45,171 nucleotides of DNA, taken from IMG/VR virus record IMGVR_UViG_3300033746_000018; one strand, written 5' to 3'. Position numbers and translations under genes: made by a program. Position 1 is the first letter of the stretch, and every line of letters begins with the position of its first letter. The notes below the pieces were generated by a model that had not been told where the DNA came from, did not search any database, and was given only the letters and a program-made list of their open reading frames with translations. Shown here in pieces: positions 6,794 through 39,042 of the stretch. The DNA comes from a virus.

Positions 6794-6809
6794 TTAAAAT
6801 AAAGGACTG

Positions 6810-8756
6810 GTGAGTATGCAGGAATTAAACTGGAATAACGATAACGAACAAAATTTAGAATTTCCAGTCCATTATTGGAATTATATCGAGAAAATGTTTT
6901 CTCAATTTGGTACAGGTGAGCATATTGTCACTAAAGCTTTTGAAGCAGATAATGATTATTTAGGCTTCACAGATGATTATGATTTTTGCTGGGGGCCTCT
7001 TAATGAAGGCGAAGGATTACCAATACAAGTTTATCCTGACAATTGGGAAACCGACCCTGTTACTAAAATAGAATACACCACACAGGATTATGGATATAAC
7101 GAGTATTCGGGCAGGTTATGGGGGGTATATCAAGCAAGTATAGGCGAAATATATCTGCTTAAAGCTAATGAAGAATTAACTGGTTGGGATAGAAATGAAT
7201 TGTTAGCTTTTTCTCCTACAGGGAGTCAAAAACCGACAATAGAGTTTAATCCAGCAGGGCATTATGAAATAGCAGTAGAAATAACAATAGCTGGTACTGG
7301 AGTTAAAGAAATATGGCTAATGAGTTATCCTTATGAAGGAAGTAGTATAAGAAAAATTTGTAACGGCAGCTCGCCAACTTTAGTATTAAATCACAACAAA
7401 GAGTTAGTTTTGTTTTATGGCGATCAAGAACAAACTAATATTTATTATAGATTAGAAAATGAAAGTTATAATACTGAACACAGTATAGACTATATATTTG
7501 AGCCGGAAAGAACTTTAGACTTCATTAATGCTTTTAAAATTGATGAAAAAGAAATAGTTGCAAAACCATACCCAGAGTTTAGCCCTGACCCAATAGAATA
7601 CAGCGGAAAATTAATAGTTTTTTATAAGCGTGATGATGATTATAAACCTTATAAATACACAATAACAGATGAACTTTACAGATATGTATTTAAATATAAA
7701 GAACCTGTTTTAGAGCCTTATTTTGATGATATTATTAATAGCATTGATATAGATGTAAGTAATTTAACCTGGGAAGATATGAGATATTTAATTAATCTAT
7801 TTTCTTCACCAGAAGCAGATATATATATTGAAGGACAGAAAGAGCAGGAAAGCATATCAACAACGTTAAACACAGCAGGTGAAGGTTCAGTTTTAATAAT
7901 ACCATATAATACAGTATATAAACTTGTGTTAGAAAAAGAAGGTATTATAGAGGACAGCTGGGGATTATTAATATTTAACAATGATGAAACTAAAATGATG
8001 GATATAAATGTACCATTTTTAGGTGATGACAGTAAGCCTGTAGAAAATAACAATATAGATATATCAATTAGTAATATTTTGTGGGATTTAGCAGGTATAG
8101 ATTTAAATATACACGCTTTTAATCAGGAGGATTTAACTGATTTATTCGGAACAACAATAACTATAGAAGCACAAAGAGAACAACCTGAATTATCATCTGT
8201 AACAGATAGCACGGGTAATGCTTTATTTACTGATGTAATACCTTATGAAACAGTATATCAGCTTACTGTTGAGGACAGCAGTTTAGGAATAAATAGAGCT
8301 ATAGGATTATTAAATAATTTTACTCCTGGAAGCAGTCAGAATATAGAGTTGCCGTTTATATCTCCTTTTGTAGAAAATAGCAGTATTGATATTTTAACAG
8401 CGGTAGAATGGGAAACAATGTATATTACTACTACTATAACTGTAAAGGATTTAGCTGGAAATTCTATAGATGGTGCTGATATTACTATTGAAGCACAAAG
8501 AGATATGCCAGAGATTAACTTAACTACAGATGTCAACGGTCAGGTAATAGAAGATTTATTGGTTTATGATACAGCATATAATTTTATTATTTCTAAAACA
8601 GGATATGTAGTGGAAGATAATTTATCGCTATTAGTCGAAAATATAGCAAGTAAGGCAAGAAGTGTAGATATGTATATTTCTGACGGAGAGTTTGATAGAT
8701 CAGAAAATAACAGTATAGACATAGTTGTAAATTCAGTATTGTGGCTGGAGGTATAA
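6810..8756 (+). CDS. Tail or adhesin-like protein (648 aa) with three tandem ~109-aa beta-sandwich modules resembling CarboxypepD_reg domains
   Basis: The repeated motifs are IYIEGQKEQ.../ITIEAQREQ.../ITIEAQRDM..., each followed by TDxxG...Y-T-Y. They are separated by four N-SIDI-x5-W linkers. Confidence 0.6.
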   Translation: MSMQELNWNNDNEQNLEFPVHYWNYIEKMFSQFGTGEHIVTKAFEADNDYLGFTDDYDFCWGPLNEGEGLPIQVYPDNWETDPVTKIEYTTQDYGYNEYSGRLWGVYQASIGEIYLLKANEELTGWDRNELLAFSPTGSQKPTIEFNPAGHYEIAVEITIAGTGVKEIWLMSYPYEGSSIRKICNGSSPTLVLNHNKELVLFYGDQEQTNIYYRLENESYNTEHSIDYIFEPERTLDFINAFKIDEKEIVAKPYPEFSPDPIEYSGKLIVFYKRDDDYKPYKYTITDELYRYVFKYKEPVLEPYFDDIINSIDIDVSNLTWEDMRYLINLFSSPEADIYIEGQKEQESISTTLNTAGEGSVLIIPYNTVYKLVLEKEGIIEDSWGLLIFNNDETKMMDINVPFLGDDSKPVENNNIDISISNILWDLAGIDLNIHAFNQEDLTDLFGTTITIEAQREQPELSSVTDSTGNALFTDVIPYETVYQLTVEDSSLGINRAIGLLNNFTPGSSQNIELPFISPFVENSSIDILTAVEWETMYITTTITVKDLAGNSIDGADITIEAQRDMPEINLTTDVNGQVIEDLLVYDTAYNFIISKTGYVVEDNLSLLVENIASKARSVDMYISDGEFDRSENNSIDIVVNSVLWLEV

Positions 8757-8757
8757 A

Positions 8758-10647
8758 ATGAATTTAAACTTTGATTTTGGAATACAGGGTAAAGTTAAAT
8801 ATGAGTTAACTGATACAAGAAACGGAAAAAAAGAAATTATTGAAGAAAATAATATACTTTTGGATAATTATTTGAATAAGTTTTTTACTGGTAATTTTGG
8901 ATTACTTAATGCAAGTGTGTTTAATAGGTGTTATCTTGGAGATAGCAATATAGCACCAACCAGAAGCCAAACAGGACTGCAGGGAAATCAATTAGCGGTT
9001 GTAAATCCTGTAGAAAAAGTAGAAGATAATTTAGGCTTATTAATAAACAATAATAACCAAATAACAAACCTCACAGGACATTCAAATTATGTTTATTCTG
9101 TAGCCTTCTCACCTGACGGCAACTATGTAGTCAGCGGTAGTGATGATAACACAGCAAAGGTGTGGGAGTATGATACAGGTAATGTGATAACAACCTTCAC
9201 AGGACATTCAGATGATGTTCGTTCTGTAGCCTTCTCACCTGACGGTAACTATGTAGTCAGCGGAAGCTGGGATAACACAGCAAAGGTGTGGGAAGTAGCA
9301 ACAGGTAATGTGATAACAACCTTCACAGGACATTCGTATGATGTTTATTCTGTAGCCTTCTCACCTGACGGCAACTATGTAGTCAGCGGAAGCGGGGATA
9401 TCACAGCAAAGGTGTGGGAAGTAGCAACAGGTAATGTGATAACAACCTTCACAGGACATTCAGATGTTGTTTATTCTGTAACCTTCTCACCTGACGGCAA
9501 CTATGTAGTCAGCGGTAGTGATGATAGCACAGTAAAGGTGTGGGAAGTAGCAACAGGTAATGTGATAACAACCTTCACAGGACATTCGTCTGATGTTGAA
9601 TCTGTAGCCTTCTCACCTGACGGTAACTATGTAGTCAGTGGAAGCTGGGATAACACAGCAAAGGTGTGGGAAGTAGCAACAGGTAATGTGATAACAACCT
9701 TCACAGGACATTCGTATGATGTTCGTTCTGTAGCCTTCTCACCTGACGGTAACTATGTAGTCAGTGGAAGCTGGGATAACACAGTAAAGGTGTGGGAAGT
9801 AGCAACAGGTAATGTGATAACAACCTTCACAGGACATTCAGATGATGTTTATTCTGTAGCCTTCTCACCTGACGGTAACTATGTAGTCAGTGGAAGCTGG
9901 GATAACACAGCAAAGGTGTGGGAGTTTAATGATAAACTAATAAACTCTGTCAGGATGGGATATAAGTATAGATTTAATGCAGGCACAGGTACTTCTATGT
10001 TAATAAAAGAAATAGCATTAAGAACAGGAGATTATTCTACAAGTTCATCATATGATGATAGATATAATAATGACTGGGTGGCAAGACAGGTTCCAACTAA
10101 CGCTATAGATAAAAAAGATTATCATCAATTGGATATAACCTGGGTTATAGAAGTTAAAAGTCCAACTATTTATTATACAACTACAATAGCTGACGGGCAA
10201 AGAGATGGTACTTCAATAGATATTGATGTAGAAATAGCAAATAGAGCTTTAGCTGATATATCAAAATTTAATCTTAAATCATTAGATAGTTTTTTCGGAA
10301 TATCAGGTACACCGCAATTTGCATTAGGCACTTCAAATGCTAAGAAATATCCTTTAGGGACTGAAAATATTGAATTAGGCTTATCTTTAGAAGGAACTGA
10401 CATATCAGGCGGATTTATAGCACCATTTGAAGTAACACAAGAACCTTATACAGCTGGTAGTTATTCAAGAACATTTAGGGTAGGTTTAGAGTCAGACCAA
10501 GGCAATCACGCTGACGGTTTGGGAGAAATAATATTAAGGAATAGTGCAGGAGATTATTTCGGTAGAGTGTTATTCACTCCACCACTTGATAAGGTTAACA
10601 CTTATAGATTTTACTTTGATATAACATTTTCCTTAAACCCTAGTTAA
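8758..10647 (+). CDS. Tail-fibre-like protein (629 aa) with an inserted seven-blade WD40 beta-propeller
   Basis: There are seven consecutive 42-aa units FTGHSxxVxSVAFSPDGNYVVSGSxDxTxKVWEVATGNVITT. The flanks show a P2 gpH N-terminal-like pattern (LGDSNIAPTRSQTGLQG ... LIKEIALRTGD). Confidence 0.8.
   Translation: MNLNFDFGIQGKVKYELTDTRNGKKEIIEENNILLDNYLNKFFTGNFGLLNASVFNRCYLGDSNIAPTRSQTGLQGNQLAVVNPVEKVEDNLGLLINNNNQITNLTGHSNYVYSVAFSPDGNYVVSGSDDNTAKVWEYDTGNVITTFTGHSDDVRSVAFSPDGNYVVSGSWDNTAKVWEVATGNVITTFTGHSYDVYSVAFSPDGNYVVSGSGDITAKVWEVATGNVITTFTGHSDVVYSVTFSPDGNYVVSGSDDSTVKVWEVATGNVITTFTGHSSDVESVAFSPDGNYVVSGSWDNTAKVWEVATGNVITTFTGHSYDVRSVAFSPDGNYVVSGSWDNTVKVWEVATGNVITTFTGHSDDVYSVAFSPDGNYVVSGSWDNTAKVWEFNDKLINSVRMGYKYRFNAGTGTSMLIKEIALRTGDYSTSSSYDDRYNNDWVARQVPTNAIDKKDYHQLDITWVIEVKSPTIYYTTTIADGQRDGTSIDIDVEIANRALADISKFNLKSLDSFFGISGTPQFALGTSNAKKYPLGTENIELGLSLEGTDISGGFIAPFEVTQEPYTAGSYSRTFRVGLESDQGNHADGLGEIILRNSAGDYFGRVLFTPPLDKVNTYRFYFDITFSLNPS
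9067..9948 (+). repeat. Seven tandem 126-bp near-identical direct repeats encoding the WD40 blades
   Basis: Unit starts are at 9067, 9193, 9319, 9445, 9571, 9697 and 9823. Units 2 and 6 differ at about 5 of 126 nt. Confidence 0.95.
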
Positions 10648-13915: not shown

Positions 13916-14506
13916 ATGGGCTTAGGAAGTGGTTTTGGCTATGGAGGCTCGACTATAGACAGAACAAATTATAATAGTGGTAATAGTAGAAATGATACTG
14001 CAAATAACAGTTATAGTAAAAGCAACAGAAGTGGAAGCAGTAATCGCTATTCATCAAACACACCAACAAGTACAAATAATGTTTTTAGTCATAAAGGGGA
14101 AAGTGGAAGTAGTAATCGTTATTCATCAAACACACCAACTTTAAATTATGCAAATGATAAACAAAATATTTTAGAAAATGCACCTTCTAAATCAATTACA
14201 GAAAGCTATAAAATAGCAGAAAATCCTAATCCTTTTATAAGGGACGTTATGAGTATAGGACAGAAATACAATACTTATCAAAGACAGGCTGCTAATCCAG
14301 AATATAATCAATATATTCAAAATAAGAATAATGAATACAGCAATAAATACAGTAATTTCAGATGGGGCAATTATAATTGGAATGATTTAGGACAGAATGA
14401 TTTTCAAAGTCAGCAAAAATTAACTGGAATATTTAATAATACAGGAAGTAATTTTATGAATAATTCTGCGACTTTATCAATGGCAAAACAGGCTTTATTC
14501 GGCTAA
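13916..14506 (+). CDS. N/S-rich low-complexity virion-module protein (196 aa) with an internal duplication
   Basis: A 38-nt repeat occurs at 14030-14067 and 14102-14139 with 2 mismatches. It encodes GSSNRYSSNTPT twice. Confidence 0.6.
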   Translation: MGLGSGFGYGGSTIDRTNYNSGNSRNDTANNSYSKSNRSGSSNRYSSNTPTSTNNVFSHKGESGSSNRYSSNTPTLNYANDKQNILENAPSKSITESYKIAENPNPFIRDVMSIGQKYNTYQRQAANPEYNQYIQNKNNEYSNKYSNFRWGNYNWNDLGQNDFQSQQKLTGIFNNTGSNFMNNSATLSMAKQALFG

Positions 14507-14518
14507 GGAGGTGAGCAT

Positions 14519-16117
14519 ATGGCTAGAAAAGGTAGTGATTTTTTAACAGGTTTTATGCAGGGGTTTAATCAAGCAGGTGGTATGCAGAGGGTATCAAATT
14601 GGGCTGCTAAAAAAAGTGGTAGTTATGATGTATTTCAAGATCCTTTTGCTATGCAGGCTTATAGTCGAGCTAGACAGATTGGTACTCCTGCAGCACAGCA
14701 GGAATTTGTAGATAAGTACGGTCAATATGTAGATACACAGGAAGGTACAACTCCTACTGAAATGTTTTTTGGTAAAGAAACTCCTACTTATATGGGCATG
14801 AACAAAGGTCAGTTTTTAAACACAGCAGTACAGGCTTTAAGCAGCGGGGCGTGGGACGAAAATGAGTTTGGTAACATTATGGCTGGTGCTAGTGAAGCAT
14901 ACGGCGAAGATTTAACTAATAATCCTTTCCTTTCAGCTTTTATGCAGGAACAACCTGATATGAAAACTAAATTTTTGAATGATCGCTGGACACAAGCTGC
15001 TTTTGATGGTAACGAATTTGCACAAAATTTAGTATCTCAAGAATATGGCGACTTTTTGTCGAATTATGTTGATGTGCCAGAAGAATTTGTTAATCCTGAT
15101 GAAAGAATAAGTTATATTCAAAATGAAATTTTTGCACAGCCAGAAGAAGGACCCAGTTTTTATGAAAATATAAATAATCCGATAGAATTTTTAGCTGCAC
15201 GAGCCGCTTTAGACGAAAATTATAATTTAGAAGGCGAGATTGCTAATTATAATGCAGCTAGAGAAACTACAGCAGATGATATAACAGCACAAATGGTAAG
15301 AACTTATATGGAACAAATGCAACCTGAACAGGAAAGATTAATTAATTTAGGCGAGCTCGGGCTTCCTGGCGGGGAAATACCTATCAGCGAAGCAGGACAG
15401 TATATAAATGTTTTAAATGGTGCTATAAATTATCAAAAAACATTAAATCCTCAAGGAGCAGATTATGGACCTACCATTGATGGAAGCCAATTCGGTATAG
15501 AAGGGCAGATACCGCTTAAATATGCAAGTGGTATAGCAGCTTTATTGAGATTAAACGGTGGCGGCAGTCCAGGCGGCGGACCAGGTGCAGGTAGTGTGGA
15601 TATAAGCCAATGGCCTATCATTAATTTTGATAAAGAAGGCCCAATAAGAAGAAACCCTGATACTGGATTTTTAATGCGGGACGCTACTATTCCTTATGTT
15701 AATAAAGATGGCCAATTAGTTCAGGCTATTGGCGATGAAGAAATGGGATACCAATATCAATATCACGATACCTTCGTACAACCACAAGGCGGTGGCGGCG
15801 GCGGAGAAGAAGAAACCGGTGGTTTTTGGAATGGTGTATTTGATATAGTAACTTCACCTCCTAATACCCCTCCTGGCATAACAGGTGGAAGTTTAAATGA
15901 AGAATATAACAATTATATTGATGATGAAACAGGAAATTTAACAGAACAAGCGATTGTTGACGCTTATAAAAATACTTTTAATATGACAGAAGAACAATTA
16001 CTAGAACAATTCCAGGCTAATAAAAACAATGTCCAATTCGTAAGTGATTTTGAGAATACAAATAATATTACTATAGAAGAAATGATTAATTACCTAAGTA
16101 ATAATGGGGTGGATTAA
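14519..16117 (+). CDS. Putative internal virion protein (532 aa) with poly-Gly tracts
   Basis: ORF track. RBS is aaggagg. Tracts include NGGGSPGGGPGAGS and PQGGGGGGEEE. Confidence 0.6.
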   Translation: MARKGSDFLTGFMQGFNQAGGMQRVSNWAAKKSGSYDVFQDPFAMQAYSRARQIGTPAAQQEFVDKYGQYVDTQEGTTPTEMFFGKETPTYMGMNKGQFLNTAVQALSSGAWDENEFGNIMAGASEAYGEDLTNNPFLSAFMQEQPDMKTKFLNDRWTQAAFDGNEFAQNLVSQEYGDFLSNYVDVPEEFVNPDERISYIQNEIFAQPEEGPSFYENINNPIEFLAARAALDENYNLEGEIANYNAARETTADDITAQMVRTYMEQMQPEQERLINLGELGLPGGEIPISEAGQYINVLNGAINYQKTLNPQGADYGPTIDGSQFGIEGQIPLKYASGIAALLRLNGGGSPGGGPGAGSVDISQWPIINFDKEGPIRRNPDTGFLMRDATIPYVNKDGQLVQAIGDEEMGYQYQYHDTFVQPQGGGGGGEEETGGFWNGVFDIVTSPPNTPPGITGGSLNEEYNNYIDDETGNLTEQAIVDAYKNTFNMTEEQLLEQFQANKNNVQFVSDFENTNNITIEEMINYLSNNGVD

Positions 16118-19100
16118 ATGGCTAAAGCAATACCTTTTCCTGGAATGGAAAAAGAAAACAACAATAAAATAAATGTAAAAGCTATACCTTTTCCTGATAT
16201 GCAGATGAATACAGAACAAAATATCAGCCAGCCAGTTAATCAACCTCAGCCGCAGTATAATGACGGCAACATATTTACTGATACTGCCAAAGATTTCGCA
16301 GGAGGATCAGCTAGATTATTTGGTAATATAGCAAATGGTGCTAGATGGCTGGGTAAATTCGTTTATTCAGCTGCAGCACAACCTCAAAATGCTTTTGCAG
16401 AATTAACAGGTAATGAACAAATGAAAGTTGACAGCAGCGACGCTTTTAAGATACCAGGGTTTAATCTTATAGAAGAAGGGTTAGACAGCTATTCTGACGC
16501 TTCTAATCAAGCTGCAGAAACCATTTTTGATAGCAAGAGTATGGAAAGTAAGCAGTTGGGTAATAATATGATAGAAAGTCTAAAAGAAGGCAGATTTATG
16601 GACTTTGGCAAGCAGCTAGTTAGCGTAACAGCACTGACTGCTCCTAATATATTACTTGCTATGATGGGCGGTTTTGCAGGTACAGCAGCACAGGGTTTAG
16701 GTGCTACAAGCACAGCAGGTAGTATGTTAGGTACTTCTAATGTACTATCGCAAGCCCTACCCAAAGCAGTTATTGGATTATCAGCTGCTGGTGGCGAATA
16801 TAGAGAAACAGAAGGTGATCCTGAACTATCAGACCAACAAGAGTTACTATCAGCAGGTGTAAAAGGTACTTCCGAAGTGATTTGGGAAAGTTTAGTAACA
16901 CTCCCTATGATAGATGATATTGTGAGAACTAATAAAATAGCTGGCGACCAAATGCAAAAAGGTATAGAATGGGGTCTTGCAAACTGGCTTAAATCAGGTG
17001 CTAAAGGTGGTTTGAGTGAAGCTGGCGAGGAAATGGGTACAGAAGCAACAAACTATATTTCTGATGTAATAATTAAAGGAAAACAATTTAATGCAGACGA
17101 ATTCACTTCTTTAGTTGCTAACGCTGGATTAGGTGCTATTGCTACAGGTGCTATTTTATCTTCAACAGGTGATTATCGTCAAAATAATGCTCAAAATAGA
17201 AGGTATGAAATGAACGAGCTTTCAAAAGCACTTAGACAATTAGAAGAATTAAAGCAAAAAGCCGAACAAGAAGCTAATCAGCAAAAACAAAGAAGAATAG
17301 AAGAAGTAAGCAATCAAATTAATAATAAAATATCTCAAATGCAACAGCAAGAGGAAATAGAAAGGCAAAGACAACAAAGTGGAGAAGCTACCCAAAATGC
17401 TTTCCAAGGTTTTCAGGGAACAATGGCTGAACAAAAAGCTGCAGCAGTTGCTAAACAAAGAATTTTAGAAAACTTAATCAATAACCAGCAAGATTTAAAC
17501 ACTTTTACAGTTAATATAGATAACAATAATTATGCTATTGTAAGAAATATGAATGATAATATTTTAGTTGATGTATTCCAGGGCAACCAGCGACAGGGTA
17601 CTATGACTGCTGAAAGTATGGAAGAATTGTTTACCGTACTTGCTAACAACGGATATGATCTATCAACTGTTACTCCATTTGAAACAGCAACAAGAGAACA
17701 GGTGCAGCAGGCAGAAATAGCTGAAAATCAACCACAGGCAGCACAGAATTTACTTAGCAGCCGTCAGAAAATGATTAATGATATAGTAGGAAGAATTAAT
17801 CAGTATGGCGGCCAGGTAGATTTAAGTCAATATGATATGCCTACAGCTGCAGATGATGTAGATACCGTTCGACAAAAATCGCTAAATGTTTTATCAGATT
17901 TAAGAAAGCAGTTAGTAGAAGCTAGACAAAATTATACACCACAGCCACAGCAACAGGAAGATGTCGCTCAAACTCCAATTGAACAGCCAAATAATGTAGA
18001 TAATACTAATTTTAATGTAGATAATTTTATAAATAAACAATTAAATAATGGCGCTGGATATTATTCGGAAGTTCATTACACCAACACAGATAATTATAAT
18101 TCTATTATTAATTCTCAATTTGAAATTTTACCAGAAGATGACAAAAGAAAATTATATGGGGACAATATAATATCAAATGCTTTATATACAGCACCATTAG
18201 ACGCTGATGAATGGACTAGAGGTTCTAGAGCTAGATTGCCTAATTATGATAAAAGAATTATCGTTAAAATTCCTAAGCAAAATATAATTGAAATCAATAA
18301 TCCTAATGAATATGCTGAAATTTGGAAAAAATATGTTGATAACGATAAATACAATAACGCTATTAATTCTTTGAATGAAGCAATATCTAAAATAGGTCAG
18401 AGAAATGAAGTTACAGAAGAAATGACACAAAAATTTATCGAAAATGAATGGATTAAACCAAACGAAGCAGAAAAAAGTAAATATTATGATTGGGACAATG
18501 CTTTAGAACAAATTAATTTTTTACCAAAAGAAGCTGTAGAAAGAATGAAACAAGATGGTATAAAAGGTATTAAATTTAATATACCGATTTTAGGAGGAAG
18601 GCAAACTGCTATATTTGACCCTTCTATAATTGAAATTGAACAATCAGTAGAACAGGATAATACTATAGAGCAGGAAAGCCAAACTGATGAAGGTTTAAAT
18701 ACACAGTCAGATACAACAGTAGAAGAAACAGGCCAATATATACAACAGAGCAATGAGCAAATAGATAATTTTAGAGAAATGGCTTCGCAAGAGAATACTC
18801 CTGGTATTCCAGAAGAATTACAATCTTATGTAATTCATAACGGTGCTAAATTTGATGTTATAGATACGAACGGCAATACCTGGACTTATCAAAGAATAGA
18901 CGACGCTATCAATGAAGCCAGAAAAACTAGAGCAGCTATTGAAGGCCAACCTATCCAAGAAGGCCAACAGCAACAAGAAGATATTGTTGAAGATGAAGGA
19001 CAACAAGAAGGCGAAGTTGTAGAAGAACAGCCACAAATTAATATTCAGGCAGAAGGTAGAGAGTCAGAAACAGCTACACCAAATAATACAGAAGTGAAAA

Positions 19101-22100
19101 CTAAATTTGCTGTAATGAACGCTGATGATATACAGGCTTCTCACGATACCAGTTTAAATGTTAATGAGAACTTCCCGCAGGAATTGCAGCCACGAGATAG
19201 AGGTAAAGCAGCCACACAGGAACAGATCATAAACATAGTAAACAATCTTAATCCTAAAAAGTTGGGCGACTCTTATTCTACAGCTACAGGATCACCGATA
19301 TTAGGACCAGATGGATATGTAGAAGTTGGTAACGGTAGAACAATAGCCTTAAAAACTTTATATGAGCAAAATCATAAAAATGCTGAAACTTATCGTCAAT
19401 GGCTTAGAGATAATGCTGAACAATTTGGATTAACAGCTAAACAAATTGATAATGTAGATAACCCTGTATTAGTTAGAGTAAGGACTTCTGATGTCGAAGA
19501 TAGGGTAAGGTTTGTGCAGGACGCCAACGCTAGAGAAAGTGCCAGTATGTCTGCAAGTGAGCAGGCTATGGTGGACGCTGACAGAATAACACAGGACTTA
19601 TTAAATAAATTTGTACCCCACGATGATGGATTAATTAATATTTCAGCAAATAAACCTTTTATTAATCAGTTTATGGATCAGGTAGTGGGTAAAGCTGAAA
19701 AAGGCGAGTTTTTAGATGAAAAAGGTTATTTAAACCAAGCAGGTATCAGAAAAGTTAAAAACGCTTTATTCGCAGCAGCTTATGATGATATTAATATTTT
19801 AGCTGAAATATCAGAGTCAACTTCTAGTAATCTTAAAAATGTTACAGGTGCTATGATGGAAGCAGCACCACGAATGGTAAATATTCAAGACCAGATGAAT
19901 AAAGGAATACTACCTGATTTAGATATAAGCCAGGACTTAGTAGAAGCTGTTAAACTGTATAAAACAATCAAAAATTCCGATAAATCATTCGACAATTATT
20001 TTCAGCAGCAGAATATGTTTGGCGAAGATAACTATACTCCTATCCAGGAAAGTCTTGTAAGAATGTTTGAAAATAATAAGCGTAGTCGCAAAGCATTAAG
20101 AGAAATACTGATAGATTACACTTATAGAGTTGAACACGCTGGGCGTGCTGATATGGACTCTATGTTTGATATTGAGCAGCCGACTAAAGAAAATTTATTA
20201 AGGCAATCAGTAGAAGCTACAGTAGGAAAAACTAATACAAGTCAAGAAACACTATTCGGTAAAGAGCCTAAAAATATTAATATCAACGGTAAAAATGTTA
20301 AAATGAGCAACAATGCTACAGAATTTAGTCAGAAGAATAAGTATGCTAGAGCAAAGTTTACTCTTAACGATAAAAAAATAGAAATGCCTGAACTCTTAGA
20401 TATAATTCTAGCCTTATCAGAAGGCAAATATCCACAGATTATTAAAAGTTTACGGAATACAGGTACATTAGGATATTATGCTCCTAAAAAAGGTCAGATA
20501 GGGCTTAATCCTGATATATTTGTGGGTGAAACTATTGTAAGAGAAAGAGTACCTGTTAAACAATTCGACAGGAGATTTCAGGAAATACAGACTACAATAG
20601 CAAATGATCCTGATATTGGCGAAGTAGAATACAGGACAAGTTTTTCTAAAAATTATGTTGAGATAAGAGTTATTAGAGTCGATCCAGAATATGCTGCACA
20701 GACAATATCGCACGAATTAGGACACTTAATAGACTTTATACCCCGTGATGATTTTGATGATGGCAGCTTAATGGACCAAATGAGTATTATCTACAAAGGC
20801 CAGAAAGATGAAGTCCTGGACGCTATTAGAGATAGTAATAACTTAGGACCACGAATTAAAACTGAACTAAAAAGATTATCTATGAAGTGGAAACCTTTTG
20901 ATCCGAAAAATAATCTTAAATTTACCAAATATCGCTTTAGCCCAGAGGAACTTTACGCTGACGCTATGAGTGTGTTCTTCTTAGACCCTGATATGCTGCA
21001 GCAGGAAGCACCATTATTTAGTCAGTTTATCCAGAAAAGTATATCTAAAAAGCCAGCAGTAAAAAAATCATATAATACTGTAAGGCACTTAATGGAAAAT
21101 AGATCTGAAATGATAAACAAAACCTTTGACAATTTACAAGAAGGTATGGTTGACGGTGTAGAACAGACTAAAAAGAAGATACAGCGTAGAGAACGGGGAG
21201 TAAAAAGTGGTTTTGATTGGCTAATAGAAAGTTTTATTGATAAAAATTCAGCCCTCTACAAATATTTCAGGGGTGAATACAGCGATACTGGAGAAAAAGG
21301 ACGGTTATCCAGGGAAGCAAGAAATAAAATGGAGGAAATAGCTTATATGTCCTCTGAGGTAGAAGATTACCTCTACAATATAGGCCAGATAATAGAAGGA
21401 TTATCAAATTATGATATAGACTTCTTAGATTTTAACTCTTTCTTATTTAATAAAAGAGTTTTGGGCGACAGAAGTAAATTTGCTAACCCACTTTTTGTTA
21501 ATACAGTTAGAGCAGAAGAAATGCAGCAGGCTTTATTAGATAAATATGGAGAAGAAAAATATCAAAAAATAGTTAACGCTGCAGAAAAATATTATCAATT
21601 AAGACAGGAAAGAATTATACCTATAATGGAAAAATCTAATATGTTTACAGAAGCGGCTATGGAAAAAGTTAAAAATAATAAAGAGTATGTAACTTTTGAG
21701 GTAGTAGATTATATTAATACTGAATTTGGCGAAGGTACTGGCGATATAATTATGCGGCAATATGGTACAGGTAGGAAAATAAGTAATCCACTTGTTGCCA
21801 CAATGCTTAAAGATATGAGTATAATCAGTTCTATCCGTATTAACGAGTCTAAGGTGGCTGCAGTAAAAGCATTAAAGAAAATAGCCCCAGAGTCAATAAG
21901 ACAAGCACCAACAAAAGAAATATACGGTAAGATAATACCTAAAGACTCTACAGACGCTGATGAAGGATTAATAACTTTTACAGTTAACGGCAAATTAGAC
22001 GGATATTTAGTTGAAAAAGATATAGCTGACCTATACGAATATACTCCACACAAGGCTAATGCAGCTACAAATACTATTTTATCAATAGTCCAGGGTATGA

Positions 22101-23602
22101 AGTCGATAATGGTATCTCACAACCCAGGTTGGATGATTTTTAACATTCCACGAGATTTCTTTGCTACAGTTATGAATAACCCTGAAATTGGTATAAAAGA
22201 TATTCCAGCATTAGCCCACGAGTACAAGAAGGCTTTTTCAGAAGCCTGGAATAATGTAAGGCACAATAAGAGATCAGAAGATATTTCATATATGAGAAGA
22301 AATAGAATGTTAACCATAGACAGAATGTATAGACCTTCTGACAGTTATATGGAAGATGATACTCAACAGCTATTAACTGAAATCTTTGATTATAACGAAC
22401 AAAGTGGGGAAGAACACAGCAGATTGCAGAAATTAATACCTGATAAAGTCCGTAGTGCTTGGGAGGGATTAGACAACTTCGGTCAGGTGTCAGAAATGAC
22501 AGGCCAGATTGCTGGATATAGAATGTTGAAGAATATGACTAATCTATCAGAAGGCGATTTAGCCCACAGAGTAAGGACCAGAGTCGGTACTCCTGACTTC
22601 AAGCAAAGAGGTGCTTTACACTCAATTACTAATAACTTATTTATCTTCTCAACAATTAGGAAATCAGGTTGGACTGCTGCAGCTGAAAGTTTTAGGCAAA
22701 ATCCAGGCACATTCTTATTTAAAGTTGCGTTATTAAGTTTGCTGCCTAAATTACTGCAGTTAGGAGCAGAAGAAGCTGATGAGTTATTCCCTGAAAGCGA
22801 ATTTGCTAAAAAGATAGCAGAAACAATGGAAGGCGTCAGCGAATATAAAAAAGAAACTTATTTAGTAGTTCCTGTATGGAAAGCAAACGGCAAAGCAATA
22901 ACTATACAACTGCCACAGGATTTTATCGGGCAGGCTGTAACTTCATTAGTTTATAATGCAGCCCGTGGAGAATGGGGAGATGTTGCAGGTACAGCCTGGA
23001 CTGAATTACCGTGGAATACAAGTAATCTTAACCCGTTATTGCAGGCCGCAGCTGATGTTCAAAGGTTAACATCTGGAGAGAATATTTACGATACCTGGCG
23101 GGGAAGAAATGTAATTTCAGAGGAAGCTATGCTGACTAATAATGTCGGTCAGAAACTTAAAGAATTTGGATTATATGAGTTCTTTAACTTAGGAGGTAGT
23201 GCAATAGTTAATCCTTCTATTGCTTATGCTGACGGCACTTTAGAAGCATTAAGTAATATCATACCTTTTAATGCAGTTAAGCGGCTAATAAGTGTGTCAG
23301 AGTCTGGATATTATGAAGATGTAACAAAAGTGTACCAGGATCAGAAAAAATATACTCAAATGGTCGCTAATTATAATAATTCAAGGAGATATGGCGAAGA
23401 TTTAAGGTACTCACGAAAAGAAATAATGGAAGCTAAAAGGAATTTATCACAACTAAATAAGCTGATTAGGCACTTCGCTAATATCAACAGGCAAATTAAG
23501 TACGCTCAAAGCCAGGGTAAAAAAGAAACAGTAGATAAACTAGAAAGACAAAAAATTAATTTGGCTCGTAGATATAATAGCAAAGAGCCGCTTAGTGATT
23601 AG
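16118..23602 (+). CDS. Giant virion-associated polyvalent protein (2494 aa). It has a Gly/Ala-rich membrane-like N-terminus, a coiled coil, a ParB/Srx-like segment and a zincin HExxH metallopeptidase.
   Basis: It is a single uninterrupted ORF. QPRDR is at 19187-19201, GNGR at 19328-19339 and HELGH at 20711-20725. It is the last gene before the lysis cassette. Confidence 0.7.
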   Translation: MAKAIPFPGMEKENNNKINVKAIPFPDMQMNTEQNISQPVNQPQPQYNDGNIFTDTAKDFAGGSARLFGNIANGARWLGKFVYSAAAQPQNAFAELTGNEQMKVDSSDAFKIPGFNLIEEGLDSYSDASNQAAETIFDSKSMESKQLGNNMIESLKEGRFMDFGKQLVSVTALTAPNILLAMMGGFAGTAAQGLGATSTAGSMLGTSNVLSQALPKAVIGLSAAGGEYRETEGDPELSDQQELLSAGVKGTSEVIWESLVTLPMIDDIVRTNKIAGDQMQKGIEWGLANWLKSGAKGGLSEAGEEMGTEATNYISDVIIKGKQFNADEFTSLVANAGLGAIATGAILSSTGDYRQNNAQNRRYEMNELSKALRQLEELKQKAEQEANQQKQRRIEEVSNQINNKISQMQQQEEIERQRQQSGEATQNAFQGFQGTMAEQKAAAVAKQRILENLINNQQDLNTFTVNIDNNNYAIVRNMNDNILVDVFQGNQRQGTMTAESMEELFTVLANNGYDLSTVTPFETATREQVQQAEIAENQPQAAQNLLSSRQKMINDIVGRINQYGGQVDLSQYDMPTAADDVDTVRQKSLNVLSDLRKQLVEARQNYTPQPQQQEDVAQTPIEQPNNVDNTNFNVDNFINKQLNNGAGYYSEVHYTNTDNYNSIINSQFEILPEDDKRKLYGDNIISNALYTAPLDADEWTRGSRARLPNYDKRIIVKIPKQNIIEINNPNEYAEIWKKYVDNDKYNNAINSLNEAISKIGQRNEVTEEMTQKFIENEWIKPNEAEKSKYYDWDNALEQINFLPKEAVERMKQDGIKGIKFNIPILGGRQTAIFDPSIIEIEQSVEQDNTIEQESQTDEGLNTQSDTTVEETGQYIQQSNEQIDNFREMASQENTPGIPEELQSYVIHNGAKFDVIDTNGNTWTYQRIDDAINEARKTRAAIEGQPIQEGQQQQEDIVEDEGQQEGEVVEEQPQINIQAEGRESETATPNNTEVKTKFAVMNADDIQASHDTSLNVNENFPQELQPRDRGKAATQEQIINIVNNLNPKKLGDSYSTATGSPILGPDGYVEVGNGRTIALKTLYEQNHKNAETYRQWLRDNAEQFGLTAKQIDNVDNPVLVRVRTSDVEDRVRFVQDANARESASMSASEQAMVDADRITQDLLNKFVPHDDGLINISANKPFINQFMDQVVGKAEKGEFLDEKGYLNQAGIRKVKNALFAAAYDDINILAEISESTSSNLKNVTGAMMEAAPRMVNIQDQMNKGILPDLDISQDLVEAVKLYKTIKNSDKSFDNYFQQQNMFGEDNYTPIQESLVRMFENNKRSRKALREILIDYTYRVEHAGRADMDSMFDIEQPTKENLLRQSVEATVGKTNTSQETLFGKEPKNININGKNVKMSNNATEFSQKNKYARAKFTLNDKKIEMPELLDIILALSEGKYPQIIKSLRNTGTLGYYAPKKGQIGLNPDIFVGETIVRERVPVKQFDRRFQEIQTTIANDPDIGEVEYRTSFSKNYVEIRVIRVDPEYAAQTISHELGHLIDFIPRDDFDDGSLMDQMSIIYKGQKDEVLDAIRDSNNLGPRIKTELKRLSMKWKPFDPKNNLKFTKYRFSPEELYADAMSVFFLDPDMLQQEAPLFSQFIQKSISKKPAVKKSYNTVRHLMENRSEMINKTFDNLQEGMVDGVEQTKKKIQRRERGVKSGFDWLIESFIDKNSALYKYFRGEYSDTGEKGRLSREARNKMEEIAYMSSEVEDYLYNIGQIIEGLSNYDIDFLDFNSFLFNKRVLGDRSKFANPLFVNTVRAEEMQQALLDKYGEEKYQKIVNAAEKYYQLRQERIIPIMEKSNMFTEAAMEKVKNNKEYVTFEVVDYINTEFGEGTGDIIMRQYGTGRKISNPLVATMLKDMSIISSIRINESKVAAVKALKKIAPESIRQAPTKEIYGKIIPKDSTDADEGLITFTVNGKLDGYLVEKDIADLYEYTPHKANAATNTILSIVQGMKSIMVSHNPGWMIFNIPRDFFATVMNNPEIGIKDIPALAHEYKKAFSEAWNNVRHNKRSEDISYMRRNRMLTIDRMYRPSDSYMEDDTQQLLTEIFDYNEQSGEEHSRLQKLIPDKVRSAWEGLDNFGQVSEMTGQIAGYRMLKNMTNLSEGDLAHRVRTRVGTPDFKQRGALHSITNNLFIFSTIRKSGWTAAAESFRQNPGTFLFKVALLSLLPKLLQLGAEEADELFPESEFAKKIAETMEGVSEYKKETYLVVPVWKANGKAITIQLPQDFIGQAVTSLVYNAARGEWGDVAGTAWTELPWNTSNLNPLLQAAADVQRLTSGENIYDTWRGRNVISEEAMLTNNVGQKLKEFGLYEFFNLGGSAIVNPSIAYADGTLEALSNIIPFNAVKRLISVSESGYYEDVTKVYQDQKKYTQMVANYNNSRRYGEDLRYSRKEIMEAKRNLSQLNKLIRHFANINRQIKYAQSQGKKETVDKLERQKINLARRYNSKEPLSD

Positions 23603-23979: not shown

Positions 23980-24351
23980 ATGAATGATATTCAGATAAGC
24001 AAAAATTTTAAGATGTCAGAGTTTGAATGTACTCACCCAGATCACAGGCATACTAGAATAGATGAAGAATTATTAGATAAGCTGCAGCAGTTAAGAGATA
24101 GATTAGAAGTACCTTTAATTATCAATTCAGCTTATCGCTGTCCTGAAAGAAATAAGCAGGTTAATGGTGCTAAAAATAGCCAACATCTTTATGGAAAAGC
24201 AGTAGATATTAGTTTACACACAATTCCTCTACAGATTGAAGAAATCAAGCGTATAGCAAAGCAAATAGGTTTTAGGGGTATTGGACTATATAATACTTTT
24301 ATCCACTTAGATGTACGGCACAGGCCAGCAGAGTGGGATAATAGAAGATGA
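23980..24351 (+). CDS. Endolysin, peptidase M15 (M15_3-type) cell-wall peptidase
   Basis: Motifs present are SAYRCPERNKQVNGAKNSQHLYGKAVDI and GIGLYNTFIHLDVR. Confidence 0.85.
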   Translation: MNDIQISKNFKMSEFECTHPDHRHTRIDEELLDKLQQLRDRLEVPLIINSAYRCPERNKQVNGAKNSQHLYGKAVDISLHTIPLQIEEIKRIAKQIGFRGIGLYNTFIHLDVRHRPAEWDNRR

Positions 24352-36327: not shown

Positions 36328-36621
36328 TTAGTTATCGCTATCATATTGTAAAGCCCTGACTAATTCTTTTGCTGCAGGCTCATTAATCTGGCCTGATAAC
36401 CATAGATCATCTATTACCTGTCTAGCTTCTTCTATCGCTTCTCTTTCCTTAATACCTGGTAGCTTATAATATTTATCTACCATTCTGCTGCCTGGATCCT
36501 GGTGGCCGTTCATTATCTTAGACATATGAGATTTACTGACTCCGATTAGCTTTCCCATTTCCTGCTGGTTGAGATTTCTTTCCTCCATATATTCTTTGAT
36601 TTTTTTTGTGATTTCGTGCAT
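36328..36621 (-). CDS. XRE-family HTH regulator (97 aa)
   Basis: I chose the start at 36621 because it follows AAGGAGGG. The HTH segment is NLNQQEMGKLIGVSKSHMSKIMNG. Confidence 0.75.
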   Translation of the reverse strand: MHEITKKIKEYMEERNLNQQEMGKLIGVSKSHMSKIMNGHQDPGSRMVDKYYKLPGIKEREAIEEARQVIDDLWLSGQINEPAAKELVRALQYDSDN

Positions 36622-36769
36622 TTTTGCCCTCCTTAATTGCTGTTCTGATTTCATCTGCTAATTCGCTGTCTACCTGATCTAGTGCTGTTAATATTCTGGC
36701 CGCTTGGTCTGTTGTTAATTCTGATATAGCGATTTTATATTCGCCGTCAAAATATCTTAATACCTTCAT
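36533..36769 (-). CDS. Hypothetical protein (78 aa) whose last ~29 codons overlap the HTH gene in another frame
   Basis: The start at 36769 follows GGAGGTGG. The N-terminus is MKVLRYFDGEYKIAISELTTDQAARIL... Confidence 0.45.
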   Translation of the reverse strand: MKVLRYFDGEYKIAISELTTDQAARILTALDQVDSELADEIRTAIKEGKNARNHKKNQRIYGGKKSQPAGNGKANRSQ

Positions 36770-36874
36770 TTTTCCACCTCCTATAATTAAAAAGTAGGTA
36801 TAATTACCCACTAAAGAAAAACTTTTACCTTGTAGAGCGGGTAGTTTTGCAGCTTACCCAGGCTGATAGAGTTA

Positions 36875-37468
36875 TTATCTTATTAATTCATAATATTTTT
36901 TTAGCTGTTCAATGGTCCAATCTTCCCAACTATCTCCCCCCCAAGGACCTTGATTTTGAGAAGGATCTTCTCCTGGTTGTGTGCTACTGCCTTCAAAATC
37001 TCCGTAATATCTGACGCCTTCTTCATCAAATCTTAACTCAACAATAGCTTCTGAGCGGTCGGGTGTATAGTCATAACCTCTGCCCCAGTATTTGCTTGAT
37101 GTAATCCAATCTAATAACTCAGGGTCTATTTCTTCTAATTCATCAGCAGTCAAAATAATTCTGCGACCTTCCAATTCATTGATAATTATATCTTTTTTTG
37201 GCTTCCATATTGCTGCAACTCTGTCCCTTAGATAACCTCTGTCGTCAACCTTGTAGATATATGCTTTTCCTATTTCCTTATCAAAATCAGCTATAGTCAT
37301 TTCTGCTGTTGCTGGGTCGTTGCTTTCTTGCCATTCTTCTTCCTCTGCCTGCATTAATAATTCGTCTATACTTAATAATGGACTTGCATTATCTTTATAC
37401 CATTCAAACCCCTGCTCTTTTGCTTCCTCTAGGACCTTCTCCATCATAGTTTTTTCACGCTTAGTCAT
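36875..37468 (-). CDS. Highly acidic hypothetical protein (197 aa)
   Basis: ORF track. RBS is aaaggagg. It is D/E- and W-rich. Confidence 0.65.
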   Translation of the reverse strand: MTKREKTMMEKVLEEAKEQGFEWYKDNASPLLSIDELLMQAEEEEWQESNDPATAEMTIADFDKEIGKAYIYKVDDRGYLRDRVAAIWKPKKDIIINELEGRRIILTADELEEIDPELLDWITSSKYWGRGYDYTPDRSEAIVELRFDEEGVRYYGDFEGSSTQPGEDPSQNQGPWGGDSWEDWTIEQLKKYYELIR

Positions 37469-37553
37469 TATAATTTCCTCCTTTTGATTTTGTGCAGCCA
37501 GCGGTTAACTGGCCGCTTAATTATTAATTCTTGATTATCTGCTCAACTCCTGC

Positions 37554-37670
37554 TTAATAATTTGGATAAGTCGCCACATAATCAGCCCAAACTACTATAA
37601 GATAGTACCAAAACCCGCCACCGACAACTGCAGCCAACAAGTATATAATCAGATCTTTGAGTTTTCTCAT
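37554..37670 (-). CDS. Possible 38-aa transmembrane micropeptide
   Basis: Hand translation gives MRKLKDLIIYLLAAVVGGGFWYYLIVVWADYVATYPNY. GGAGGGGGG lies 6 nt upstream. Confidence 0.4.
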   Translation of the reverse strand: MRKLKDLIIYLLAAVVGGGFWYYLIVVWADYVATYPNY

Positions 37671-37861
37671 ATTCTGCCCCCCTCCTGGAATAGATTATCC
37701 TGCCGCATAACCTGACCCTCTCCGCAGATCATTCGCTTTCTTTCCGCTTCTGCTTTCGTGGCTGCTTTTGCTAATATCAAACCCTTGTTGTCAACTACGA
37801 AATATCGTGGCCTGCAGCGACCTGTAAACTCGTCAAACAATGGATTCCGCTTCATATTCAT
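37667..37861 (-). CDS. Hypothetical protein (64 aa)
   Basis: ORF track. RBS is aagggggcg. Confidence 0.55.
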   Translation of the reverse strand: MNMKRNPLFDEFTGRCRPRYFVVDNKGLILAKAATKAEAERKRMICGEGQVMRQDNLFQEGGRI

Positions 37862-37863
37862 AA

Positions 37864-38031
37864 TTACGCCCCCTTATTAATGTAATATTCAGGCTGTATG
37901 CTTTCGGCCTGGACCTGTATTTCCTCCAGGACCTGCAGCACTTCTGTTAATTCTGCAGCTTGTCCCGTCCTACCTAAATCGTTAATATGTCGGACCAACT
38001 TTTCTAATAACATTTGGCTGTATTCTTGCAT
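37864..38031 (-). CDS. Hypothetical helical microprotein (55 aa)
   Basis: Hand translation gives MQEYSQMLLEKLVRHINDLGRTGQAAELTEVLQVLEEIQVQAESIQPEYYINKGA. RBS is aggggtg. Confidence 0.45.
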   Translation of the reverse strand: MQEYSQMLLEKLVRHINDLGRTGQAAELTEVLQVLEEIQVQAESIQPEYYINKGA

Positions 38032-38054
38032 TTTTTCACCCCTTTACATTTGAT

Positions 38055-38110
38055 TTGAGAAAAATTAAAACTTAATGCAGCCTGCCAGGTAGTGGGACCC
38101 TGACAAGCTG
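38055..38110 (-). terminator. Possible intrinsic terminator or processing hairpin inside the leftward operon
   Basis: A 12-bp stem joins 38078-38089 and 38099-38110. On the minus strand it is followed by CAUUAAGUUUUAAUUUUU. Confidence 0.4.
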
Positions 38111-38118
38111 GATAAATT

Positions 38119-38505
38119 CTAATAACCTTTTGCGTAAAATTCGCCTGCTTCTTTTAAATCTTTTTCAAAGTCTTTTTTGTTATCAAATACTTTTAAAATT
38201 AAATCTCCTTCAATATAAGTGAACTTTGCTTTTAAATCTTTATTTATAAATACTTCCCTGTAGGCTGTGGTCCATTCCCAAACTCTTTCAAAATCAAAAA
38301 GCTGTAGCATAACTTTTGGCCAATTGCTTTCCTGAAATTCAGGCTTAAATCCTCTGTAAAGCCTATAACCTTCCTCAACTTCTACCTTATCCATTAAAGT
38401 GGTTAATACATCAATTTGGTGGTCCTCTGTTCTTGCTATACTCATAAAGTCCTTATATTCTTGAGTGATTTTGTGGCCGTCCAATTTCTTTTCATAAGTA
38501 GTCAT
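38119..38505 (-). CDS. Hypothetical protein (128 aa)
   Basis: ORF track. It is preceded by the conserved leader element. Confidence 0.65.
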   Translation of the reverse strand: MTTYEKKLDGHKITQEYKDFMSIARTEDHQIDVLTTLMDKVEVEEGYRLYRGFKPEFQESNWPKVMLQLFDFERVWEWTTAYREVFINKDLKAKFTYIEGDLILKVFDNKKDFEKDLKEAGEFYAKGY

Positions 38506-38592
38506 TATTTAACACTCTCCTTTTAATTTTTTTCTAGCTTAAAAGCTAGCTCCTGCAGATCTTTCAGGACCTGCAAGAGTTAACCGTTAAGA
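38506..38592 (-). promoter_or_regulatory. Conserved intergenic leader element, copy A. It contains the palindrome CTAGCTTTTAAGCTAG, an upstream hairpin and an identical RBS context.
   Basis: About 50 nt are near-identical to 39043-39092, and the remainder is hairpin-forming with a different stem sequence. Confidence 0.6.
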
Positions 38593-39042
38593 TTAGATTA
38601 TACCTTTTTCCTTGAAACTGATATATTGACTATCAGCTATAATAATATGATCTACAACATTAATTCCTAATATATCGCCACCTTTGACTAATTTTTTTGT
38701 TATGCTGACATCATCGCCGCTCGGCATTGGGTCGCCACTTGGATGGTTATGGCACAAAACTATACCTGCAGCATTTTGCATTATTGCCCGCTGAAAAACT
38801 GTTCTAGGTTCTACAATTGAAGAAGAAAGGCCGCCTTTGTGGACCTCAAAAACTCCAGTTATATTATTTTTGACATCTAATGTCGCCATTGCTAACACTT
38901 CCTGACCTCTGATATCCATTTCTAGTACCTTGTTGAAGAATTCAGCTGCGACTATTGGGTTTGTGATTTTCTCGTTATCTATTGCCTGATAATCCACCTC
39001 GTTCTCCTTGATTAACCTGATATCAAACTTTGTAATTTTCAT
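38593..39042 (-). CDS. radC: RadC-like JAB/MPN+ domain protein (149 aa)
   Basis: The JAMM motif is present: VLCHNHPSGDPMPSGDD, with VVDHIII downstream. Confidence 0.85.
   Translation of the reverse strand: MKITKFDIRLIKENEVDYQAIDNEKITNPIVAAEFFNKVLEMDIRGQEVLAMATLDVKNNITGVFEVHKGGLSSSIVEPRTVFQRAIMQNAAGIVLCHNHPSGDPMPSGDDVSITKKLVKGGDILGINVVDHIIIADSQYISFKEKGII

Follow-up and report, generated by a model that had tools for sequence, protein, structure and literature searches.

The window analyzed here is a 45,171-nucleotide stretch of viral DNA (IMG/VR virus record IMGVR_UViG_3300033746_000018), and its gene at 16118..23602 on the plus strand encodes a protein of 2494 amino acids (aa) in a single open reading frame (ORF) with an ATG start. 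We put the probability at about three in four that this gene encodes a giant internal virion protein of an SU10-like podovirus, namely a phage-type polyvalent protein in which a fixed frame carries exchangeable cargo. Giant polyvalent proteins are thought to deliver ready countermeasures when the phage DNA is most exposed, and almost none of them has been studied. The class, with its DdrB-ParB, MPTase and LPD38 domains and its restriction to phage late regions, was described in 2017 by Iyer et al. (PMC5512222), and nothing found here overturns current views. An earlier note on the window, made from its letters without database searches, had proposed the polyvalent reading, and this proposal held up: a ddrB-ParB domain is confirmed, the C-terminal module is homologous to LPD38 proteins, and the family carries polyvalent cargo.

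The domain evidence begins with ParB. The ddrB-ParB domain proper (19082-19483 on the plus strand, aa 989-1122) matches Pfam PF18763 at E 3.5e-35 with 121.2 bits, against a gathering score of 27.6, over model positions 2-120 of 121, which bears out the ParB-like segment suspected in the earlier note. No other Pfam family matches the window protein above threshold. With PHROGs 5143 and 2299 the matched stretch widens to aa 962-1424, BLASTP aligned window aa 980-1363 with aa 27-422 of P1 DdrB (32% identity, E 4e-53), and a tblastn search of phage records found the ParB stretch to be ~32% identical in P1 DdrB and its relatives. The DdrB-type cassette as a whole is located at 19010..20246 on the plus strand (aa 965-1376). 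Within it, LQPRDRGK occupies aa 1023-1030 (nt 19184-19207) and EVGNGRTIALKTL aa 1069-1081 (nt 19322-19360), 3 and 6 nt away from the positions given earlier (19187 and 19328), whereas the HELGH motif discussed below had been placed exactly. The string EVGNGRTIAL at aa 1069-1078, read in the window sequence alone, shows the active-site arginine of the ParB/Srx fold (PMC5512222). As to what ddrB-ParB domains do, Iyer et al. favor nucleoside triphosphate sensing or hydrolysis, or nicking (PMC5512222).

The frame is best seen in the conserved C-terminal module (C-module), which spans 20222..23599 on the plus strand (aa 1369-2494, 1126 residues). An exhaustive phmmer search with aa 1369-2494 returned 1803 representatives (of a 50% clustering) at E <= 0.001, 1121 of them at E <= 1e-30. 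The proteins that carry it are 1400-4400 aa long, with a median of 1996 aa and a maximum of 4407 aa, and in 170 members the match always ends near the C-terminus, leaving a median of 77 residues and at most 250. Alignment of the C-module by hhalign to LPD38-type C-termini, i.e., the C-termini of ddrB-ParB polyvalent proteins obtained by homology search, mostly with a Pfam LPD38 match, gave a probability of 97.6% and E 3e-12 over 407 columns, and a hidden Markov model (HMM) of the family, built from 159 members, matches Bcep22 gp75 at aa 3991-4248 with E 6e-15. The AlphaFold2 model of the C-module, made from a 17-sequence alignment, has a mean predicted local distance difference test score (pLDDT) of 70.6 and a predicted template modeling score of 0.62. 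When this model was compared by Foldseek with BFVD, 60 models matched at E <= 0.001, the best 50 all at E <= 4e-7, and the best matches (E 6e-32 to 1e-13, template modeling score ~0.45-0.5) are terminal fragments of giant viral proteins. Many of these are named 'Large polyvalent protein associated domain(-38)-containing protein', and others are labeled LT_GEWL, RelA/SpoT, methylase or helicase. The C-module is therefore homologous to the C-termini of LPD38-bearing polyvalent proteins.

This has a consequence for the ~60% of the protein that was left unassigned in the earlier note and recommended there as a place to look for new effector domains. The C-terminal 45% is conserved frame, found in 1803 representatives, and not an effector reservoir, so that this recommendation does not stand for this part; the variable parts are aa 631-846, aa 965-1376 and the alternative cassettes of the relatives. 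The C-module lies largely outside Pfam, PHROGs and NCBIfam, and numerous viral metagenomes would be better annotated if it were defined.

Within the C-module lies a zincin-like domain (20369..21121 on the plus strand, aa 1418-1668), with H1532, E1533, H1536, D1539 and E1611 as its key residues. The HELGH motif itself is at aa 1532-1536 (nt 20711-20725), and EELYADAMSVFF at aa 1610-1621. Of the 147 scorable family members, 146 have an HExxH motif at most 420 residues upstream of an ELYAD-like motif, which contains the downstream Glu. In an alignment of 19 diverse members, H1532, E1533, G1535, H1536, D1539, E1583, R1606 and E1611-L-Y-A-D are invariant, and an Asp three residues past the HExxH is the mark of a widespread phage-type MPTase clade of Iyer et al. 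(PMC5512222). In the model of aa 1418-1668 (pLDDT 79), HELGH is located in a helix at model residues 108-120 and the Glu in a helix at 192-205, each after beta strands; this corresponds to the gluzincin pattern of an HExxH helix with a downstream Glu as third zinc ligand. Matches to known families are mostly below threshold. The window protein itself gives Reprolysin_5 at its HELGH (E 0.046) and anthrax lethal factor (ATLF) at E 0.019, and Pfam searches member by member gave Peptidase_M48 at 5e-5, SprT-like at 6e-4 and ATLF at 1.4e-3, as well as M90, M78, M64, M10 and a few unrelated families at chance level. One member, P0011, matches DUF6782, a putative metallopeptidase, at E 9e-7 with 28.8 bits against a 27-bit cut-off. 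The zincin profile searched against PDB sequences found a snake-venom metalloproteinase only, at E 0.61. Taken together, the zincin assignment is a weak one, made at the level of motifs by convergent evidence. Approximately half of the zincin domains, including the one in the window, contain an extra insertion of ~60 residues between the first strands and the HExxH helix, predicted to be a helix and a beta-hairpin (aa ~1470-1520, alignment columns ~165-230), and the other half are without it.

What this putative peptidase would cut can be read in two ways. P1 DdrB undergoes processing to 76 kDa, for which self-cleavage has been suggested (PMC5512222), and the HExGHxxD...E zincin of the window protein might likewise cut the polyprotein and free its cargo. 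Alternatively, it could be an effector or wall-degrading peptidase that acts on peptidoglycan cross-links or on host proteins at entry. The authors of the phi24B study suggest that the gp47 metallopeptidase degrades peptidoglycan, Iyer et al. allow MPTases as effectors (PMC5512222), a transglycosylase is missing from the window protein, and the domain is invariant while the cargo varies. We nevertheless find this alternative rather improbable, since the weak matches are to intracellular and toxin zincins (M48, SprT, anthrax lethal factor, M78) and not to cell-wall families, since relatives that carry an SLT domain retain the zincin, and since P1 DdrB is known to be processed.

Exchange of cargo became apparent from a comparison of the closest relatives (proteins P0001-P0007 and P0174), in which the frame is 88-98% identical and the center is a mosaic. 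At the DNA level, the window is 91-95% identical to L003 on both sides of sharp breakpoints, and L003 lacks nt 18009-18654 of the window and carries 2.2 kb of unrelated sequence in place of 19010-20246. The first of these segments belongs to an orphan module that we call cassette A (18009..18665 on the plus strand, aa 631-849; 657 nt, 219 codons), which is missing in L003, P0001, P0003 and P0004-7 and is present in P0002. It is flanked by a 10-bp direct repeat, GATAATACTA, with its left copy at 17999..18008 and its second copy at 18656-18665 on the plus strand, and L003, which lacks the cassette, has just one GATAATACTA at this site. An exact repeat around the cassette together with one copy at the empty site suggests gain or loss by microhomology. 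The second exchanged segment contains the DdrB-type cassette, so that the ParB module is itself a swappable cassette: unrelated sequence takes its place in L003, P0002 and P0004-7, and five close relatives are without ParB. Between the two lies a small conserved domain, named L, with a Q/E linker (18656..19009 on the plus strand, aa 847-964), which is 94.6% identical to L003 at the nucleotide level; in P0003 it is replaced by cassette D.

Across these relatives there are seven central cassettes, which occur in frame and in varied combinations (the labels A, L, C, D, E and F are our own). The window has A + L + ParB, P0002 has A + L + F, P0001 has L + C + ParB, P0003 has D (replacing L) + ParB, P0004-6 have L + F, P0007 has L + E + F, and P0174 has E + ParB, the latter with a divergent N-terminal region. 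Cassettes C and D were each seen in a single protein. Cassette A recurred in P0002, and E and F in a small number of further family members. Pfam recognized no family in P0001 and P0007, which carry cassettes C, E and F, and searches with cassette A in Pfam, NCBIfam, PDB sequences and phage records gave nothing. We also considered whether cassette A is an ADP-ribosyltransferase (ART), because its end (...TAIFDPSII) resembles by eye the ART-like ends of P0008 and P0011, but the sole Pfam hint is Tox-ART-HYD1 at E 0.44 over aa 653-683, P0011 has no ART match, and tblastn and PDB searches with cassette A were empty.

In the wider C-module family, the cargo comprises SLT, Zeta_toxin, GGDEF, InPase, PBECR5, ART-PolyVal, RadC and 2H domains, MTS methylase, AAA_34/Helicase_C_4, ResIII and DEAD helicases, and ddrB-ParB, the set of domains by which polyvalent proteins are defined. 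Of note, P0024, P0176, P0178 and P0148 carry among them GGDEF diguanylate cyclase domains, Zeta-toxin kinase domains and an N-terminal SLT domain (P0148, aa 47-145). A GGDEF or Zeta domain injected by a phage would be worth a separate look.

One could go further and regard the center as a strain-level arsenal within an essential virion protein, with at least seven in-frame cassettes in 3-4 slots that are gained and lost through short direct repeats. Cassettes A, C, D, E and F, for which no relatives were detectable, would then be new co-injected effectors selected by the defenses of host strains, and the N-terminal motif described below would be a family-wide capsid-targeting tag. We consider this extension speculative and would not expect it to hold in full; if it is true, the N-terminal tag might serve to bring foreign cargo into the heads of podoviruses.

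Turning to the N-terminal region, the sequence KAIPFP is present twice, as noted before (16124..16195 on the plus strand; copies at 16124-16141 and 16178-16195, aa 3-8 and 21-26). Exactly repeated 4-mers occur in the first 80 aa of 60 of 146 family members, compared with 20 in a control region. Throughout the family, a short hydrophobic/acidic motif is doubled or tripled at the N-terminus with a sequence that differs by lineage, examples being KAIPFP x2, KTIFSGIKLP x2, RDLSVVYT x3 and DIFDKV x3, and the carriers include P0026, P0029, P0033, P0044, P0070 and P0072. In P1 DarB, capsid targeting resides in the N-terminal 30 residues (PMC9024508), and by analogy the duplicated motif of the window protein may be a capsid-targeting or docking signal, for which it is a candidate.

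The motif is followed by a Gly/Ala/Ser/Thr-rich, moderately hydrophobic region (16610..17182 on the plus strand, aa 165-355), in which these four residues make up 42% and which includes the Gly/Ala-rich string LTAPNILLAMMGGFAGTAAQGLGATSTAG (aa 173-201); 19-mers at 167-196 and 329-347 reach Kyte-Doolittle values of 1.3-1.55. The Gly/Ala-rich stretch of the earlier note is therefore present, with a hydrophobicity that is moderate. Likewise, its Q/E-rich segment is found as a helical linker at 17183..17452 on the plus strand (aa 356-445), with 36% Q+E, also when counted over aa 355-445. In 80% of the family members, the G/A-richest 100-aa window falls in the first 20% of the protein. A further hydrophobic helix, FLFKVALLSLLPKLLQLGA, lies in the C-module (22712..22768 on the plus strand, aa 2199-2217; Kyte-Doolittle 1.56), and, as judged by eye, P0008 and P0011 have equivalent segments. 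From the composition of the N-terminus we infer a membrane-penetrating role. The idea that the N-terminal region is a homologous domain throughout the family was rejected (23/156, see below), as composition and position alone are shared. Of note, the C-module of P0174 is 97% identical to that of the window and its N-terminal aa 41-348 are only distantly similar (E 6e-36 over aa 46-358); the N-terminal part of the frame is therefore likewise exchanged between lineages.

The genomic position is that of a late virion gene. The giant gene is the last one in the structural operon, located between SU10-type capsid and adaptor genes (SU10_MCP E 4e-37, SU10_adaptor E 1e-10, both types also being found on the contig of the relatives) and an endolysin gene, after which the lysis genes follow. 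The portal resembles the portals of T7-like cyanophages and pelagiphages, and among the structural ORFs scanned there was no tube, sheath or tape-measure protein. From these sequence matches, the phage is an SU10-like podovirus. The ORF covers 16.6% of the window, in agreement with the one sixth of the genome reported earlier. Its ATG immediately follows the stop codon of the 532-aa ORF upstream (TAAATG), the next ORF begins 3 nt past its own stop, and it is intact in the protein clusters of eight relatives (2317-2612 aa). Internal repeats were sought in the 2494-aa protein and none were found, neither a megablast search of 50,697 phage records with the gene nor phmmer of the whole protein against PDB sequences gave a match, and an NCBIfam scan of five protein pieces gave nothing meaningful.

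The large size, the helical and low-complexity stretches, and the position at the end of the structural module would also be expected of a conventional tail protein, such as a tape measure or a fiber, with incidental motifs. This is hardly conceivable and in our view refuted: the neighbors lack tube, sheath and tape-measure proteins and include a podovirus capsid and adaptor of the SU10 type, no PHROG or Pfam tail family matches the protein, the ParB domain is genuine, the HExxH is conserved, and the family carries enzymatic cargo. The earlier note would have taken as a refutation either an assignment to a conventional tape-measure or tail-fiber family or HExxH and ParB-like motifs that are not conserved in homologs. 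Neither occurred: no such family was assigned, and the HExxH is conserved.

The two genes directly upstream (13916..16117 on the plus strand; 196 aa and 532 aa) are candidates for partner internal or ejection proteins, and the giant gene is translationally coupled to them. Their order and sizes parallel those of JC1 gp67 (196 aa) and gp68 (510 aa) and of Bcep22 gp74 (532 aa). A likeness of the two proteins to virion proteins of Baldr or Bcep22 was dismissed, since BLAST finds no similarity, and the size match reflects either a conserved architecture with diverged sequence or coincidence.

Combining these data, we propose the following course of events. The protein would be loaded into the procapsid with the duplicated N-terminal motif as targeting signal, comparable to the first 30 residues of P1 DarB, and at infection it would exit by way of portal and nozzle, either earlier than the DNA or together with it, comparable to the ejection of the P1 Dar proteins ahead of or with the DNA (PMC12810830). 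The Gly/Ala-rich N-terminal helices and the C-module, including the helix at aa 2199-2217, might aid in crossing or bridging the envelope. After release by the zincin, as discussed above, the ParB cassette and other cargo would target nucleotides, DNA or host defenses in the cytoplasm, comparable to the action of P1 Dar against type I restriction, and the cassette turnover in close relatives would reflect selection by differing host defenses.

A rival explanation is that the protein is purely cargo, that its conserved ends serve capsid loading and folding or unfolding only, and that the channel is provided by other proteins, such as the 196-aa and 532-aa neighbors. The N4 virion RNA polymerase needs its MPTase-containing C-terminal region for encapsidation (PMC5512222), the targeting of P1 DarB lies in the first 30 residues, the hydrophobic segments of the window protein are weak, and the P1 Dar proteins are head cargo of a myovirus that needs no such channel. 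However, some relatives that share the C-module have N-terminal lytic transglycosylases (SLT at aa 47-145 of P0148, a lytic transglycosylase (LT)-like domain at aa 80-192 of JC1 gp69), as in T7 gp16, which points to a cell-wall role. In addition, the gene holds the gp16 slot in podoviruses, the phi24B authors propose a conduit role for gp47, and N4 gp50 is not detectably homologous. A cargo-only protein is thus conceivable, and we are inclined to doubt it.

Several results weigh against the reading as a giant polyvalent virion protein with a fixed frame and exchangeable cargo. The earlier note had likened the HExxH segment to the polyvalent-protein metallopeptidase, and while the motif is kept in 146 of 147 members, Pfam PF18818 (MPTase-PolyVal) gave no match at E <= 10, either with the whole protein or with 400-aa pieces, nor did it match any of 19 diverse members at E <= 0.05, and a Foldseek search of the zincin domain against the PDB returned a best E of 0.04 with top matches that contain no zincin. 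The LPD38-like stretch (22832..23131 on the plus strand, aa 2239-2338) is a sub-threshold Pfam PF18857 match of 20.2 bits (E 7e-4), under the 27-bit cut-off, and Foldseek of the C-module against the PDB gave chance-level matches only (gyrase, kinases) and no solved ejection protein. The support for packaging in the virion comes by analogy through the homologs JC1 gp69, phi24B gp47 and P1 DdrB only, together with a gene position that fits it, and the 196-aa and 532-aa proteins have no Pfam or PHROG match and no similarity to known internal virion proteins. Iterated profiles of the N-terminal region reached only 23 of 156 family proteins, and the hydrophobic segments are moderate, with Kyte-Doolittle values of at most 1.56. 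P1 DdrB has been described mainly as a helper of DarB incorporation, and in protection against EcoB and EcoK as well, and we know of no ddrB-ParB domain with a demonstrated function.

Downstream of the giant gene, the lysis module starts with an endolysin-like M15 peptidase (23980..24351 on the plus strand; PHROG 894, E 8e-35), and Peptidase_M15 is likewise found on the contig of the relatives. Elsewhere in the window, a 629-aa tail-region protein (8758-10647) is a WD40 beta-propeller (repeat E 4e-99, whole-propeller models to 4e-112), which is unusual in a phage structural module. Its gene falls within the part of the window that is most divergent from L003 (~6800-10400), and the protein may therefore function in receptor binding or host range. 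At 36328-39509 the ORFs form a minus-strand block in which the GC skew is reversed, and the contig of the relatives has genes for Cro-like DUF739 and Mu Gam, which together hint at a temperate lifestyle. The sole relative in a collection of species-representative genomes, L007 (QBLP01000407.1), is a 1403-bp contig in a metagenome-assembled genome bin of Halanaerobium and matches the C-module at aa 409-875 with 94% identity. The G+C content of Halanaerobium is low, similar to the ~35% of the window, and this genus is a weak lead as the host.

How does the window protein compare with known systems? Several unrelated domains in one huge polypeptide, by which the polyvalent class is recognized, are seen here as ParB, the HExGHxxD...E domain and the orphan cassette; shared phage-type domains are seen as a DdrB-ParB above threshold and a C-module homologous to LPD38-bearing proteins; and the late, virion-gene location as the position from SU10 capsid and adaptor genes to endolysin. 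With T7 gp16 the protein shares the slot, by way of a pelagiphage relative: the homolog in pelagiphage EXVC032P Baldr (2329 aa, family HMM E 3e-134, with HELGHLIDFLPQR at aa 1164) has its gene downstream of those for tail tubular proteins A and B and for three smaller proteins, and ahead of the tail-fiber gene, which is the gp16 slot. The N-terminal transglycosylase of gp16 occurs in some family members, and in the window protein itself no PHROG or Pfam internal-virion match, no PDB fold match and no SLT domain were found. The three-part layout of N4 gp50, with N-terminal injection, central effector and C-terminal HExxH MPTase and encapsidation domains (PMC5512222), is alike, but this likeness is functional only, as homology was rejected when two family HMMs gave no match. 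An N4-like virion RNA polymerase was likewise rejected, since vRNAP_dom_2 matches at chance level (E 0.99).

Like the window protein, P1 DdrB has a ParB module followed by an HExxH domain, and 39 of its peptides were detected by virion proteomics. However, DdrB is a free-standing myovirus protein of 995 aa, whereas the ParB of the window is a cassette in a 2494-aa frame; between the two HExxH domains there is hardly any relationship (E 0.003 for a profile against a single sequence), and neither the N-terminal region nor the 800-aa C-terminal part has an equivalent in P1. The phi24B gp47 protein (2811 aa; LPD5, LPD1, LPD38, MuF-C) is, as here, a giant podovirus polyvalent protein with LPD38-type domains, and it is abundant in the virion by proteomics, although the reconstruction does not show it; its authors propose that it is encapsidated and serves in ejection (bioRxiv 10.64898/2026.04.10.717836). 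Its peptidase family (MuF-C) and its cargo differ from those of the window protein, and the link to its class was made only stepwise, in that the C-terminus of Bcep22 gp75 matches Stx-converting podophages and the window HMM matches gp75.

The Lessievirus proteins JC1 gp69 and Bcep22 gp75, annotated as 'DarB-like antirestriction protein', share the polyvalent make-up and the arrangement: each is a giant single ORF, there approximately a fifth of the genome, that comes last in the morphogenesis module before the lysis genes and is preceded by virion proteins of 196 aa and ~510-532 aa. In JC1, gp67 (196 aa), gp68 (510 aa) and gp69 (4515 aa) are followed by lysis genes, and all three are virion-associated by mass spectrometry, gp69 with 51 unique virion peptides; gp69 has an LT-like domain at aa 80-192 and LPD38 at its C-terminus. 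The window protein is half the size of these proteins and lacks their lytic transglycosylase, methylase and helicase; its ddrB-ParB cassette and zincin, in turn, are absent at the corresponding place from proteins of the gp75 type. The similarity to Bcep22 gp75 is limited to part of the C-module and is missed by BLAST, and the LPD38 of the window is under the Pfam threshold. The C-module of Bcep22 gp75 is represented in 337 records of cultured phages, including Stx-converting, Ralstonia, Vibrio and Burkholderia phages, and related giant proteins of Stx-converting, Ralstonia and Vibrio podophages belong, with gp75 and gp69, to the closest known systems. New compared with the literature on the class are the delimitation of a ~1100-aa C-module of zincin and LPD38-like parts that is very common in metagenomes and for the most part lacks annotation, the in-frame, combinatorial turnover of cassettes among near-identical genomes, with microhomology at one junction, and the recurrent N-terminal tandem motif. 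The locus offers a compact case, with 2494 aa in a 45-kb podovirus, in which frame and cargo can be told apart and nature provides near-isogenic variants with the cargo as their sole difference.

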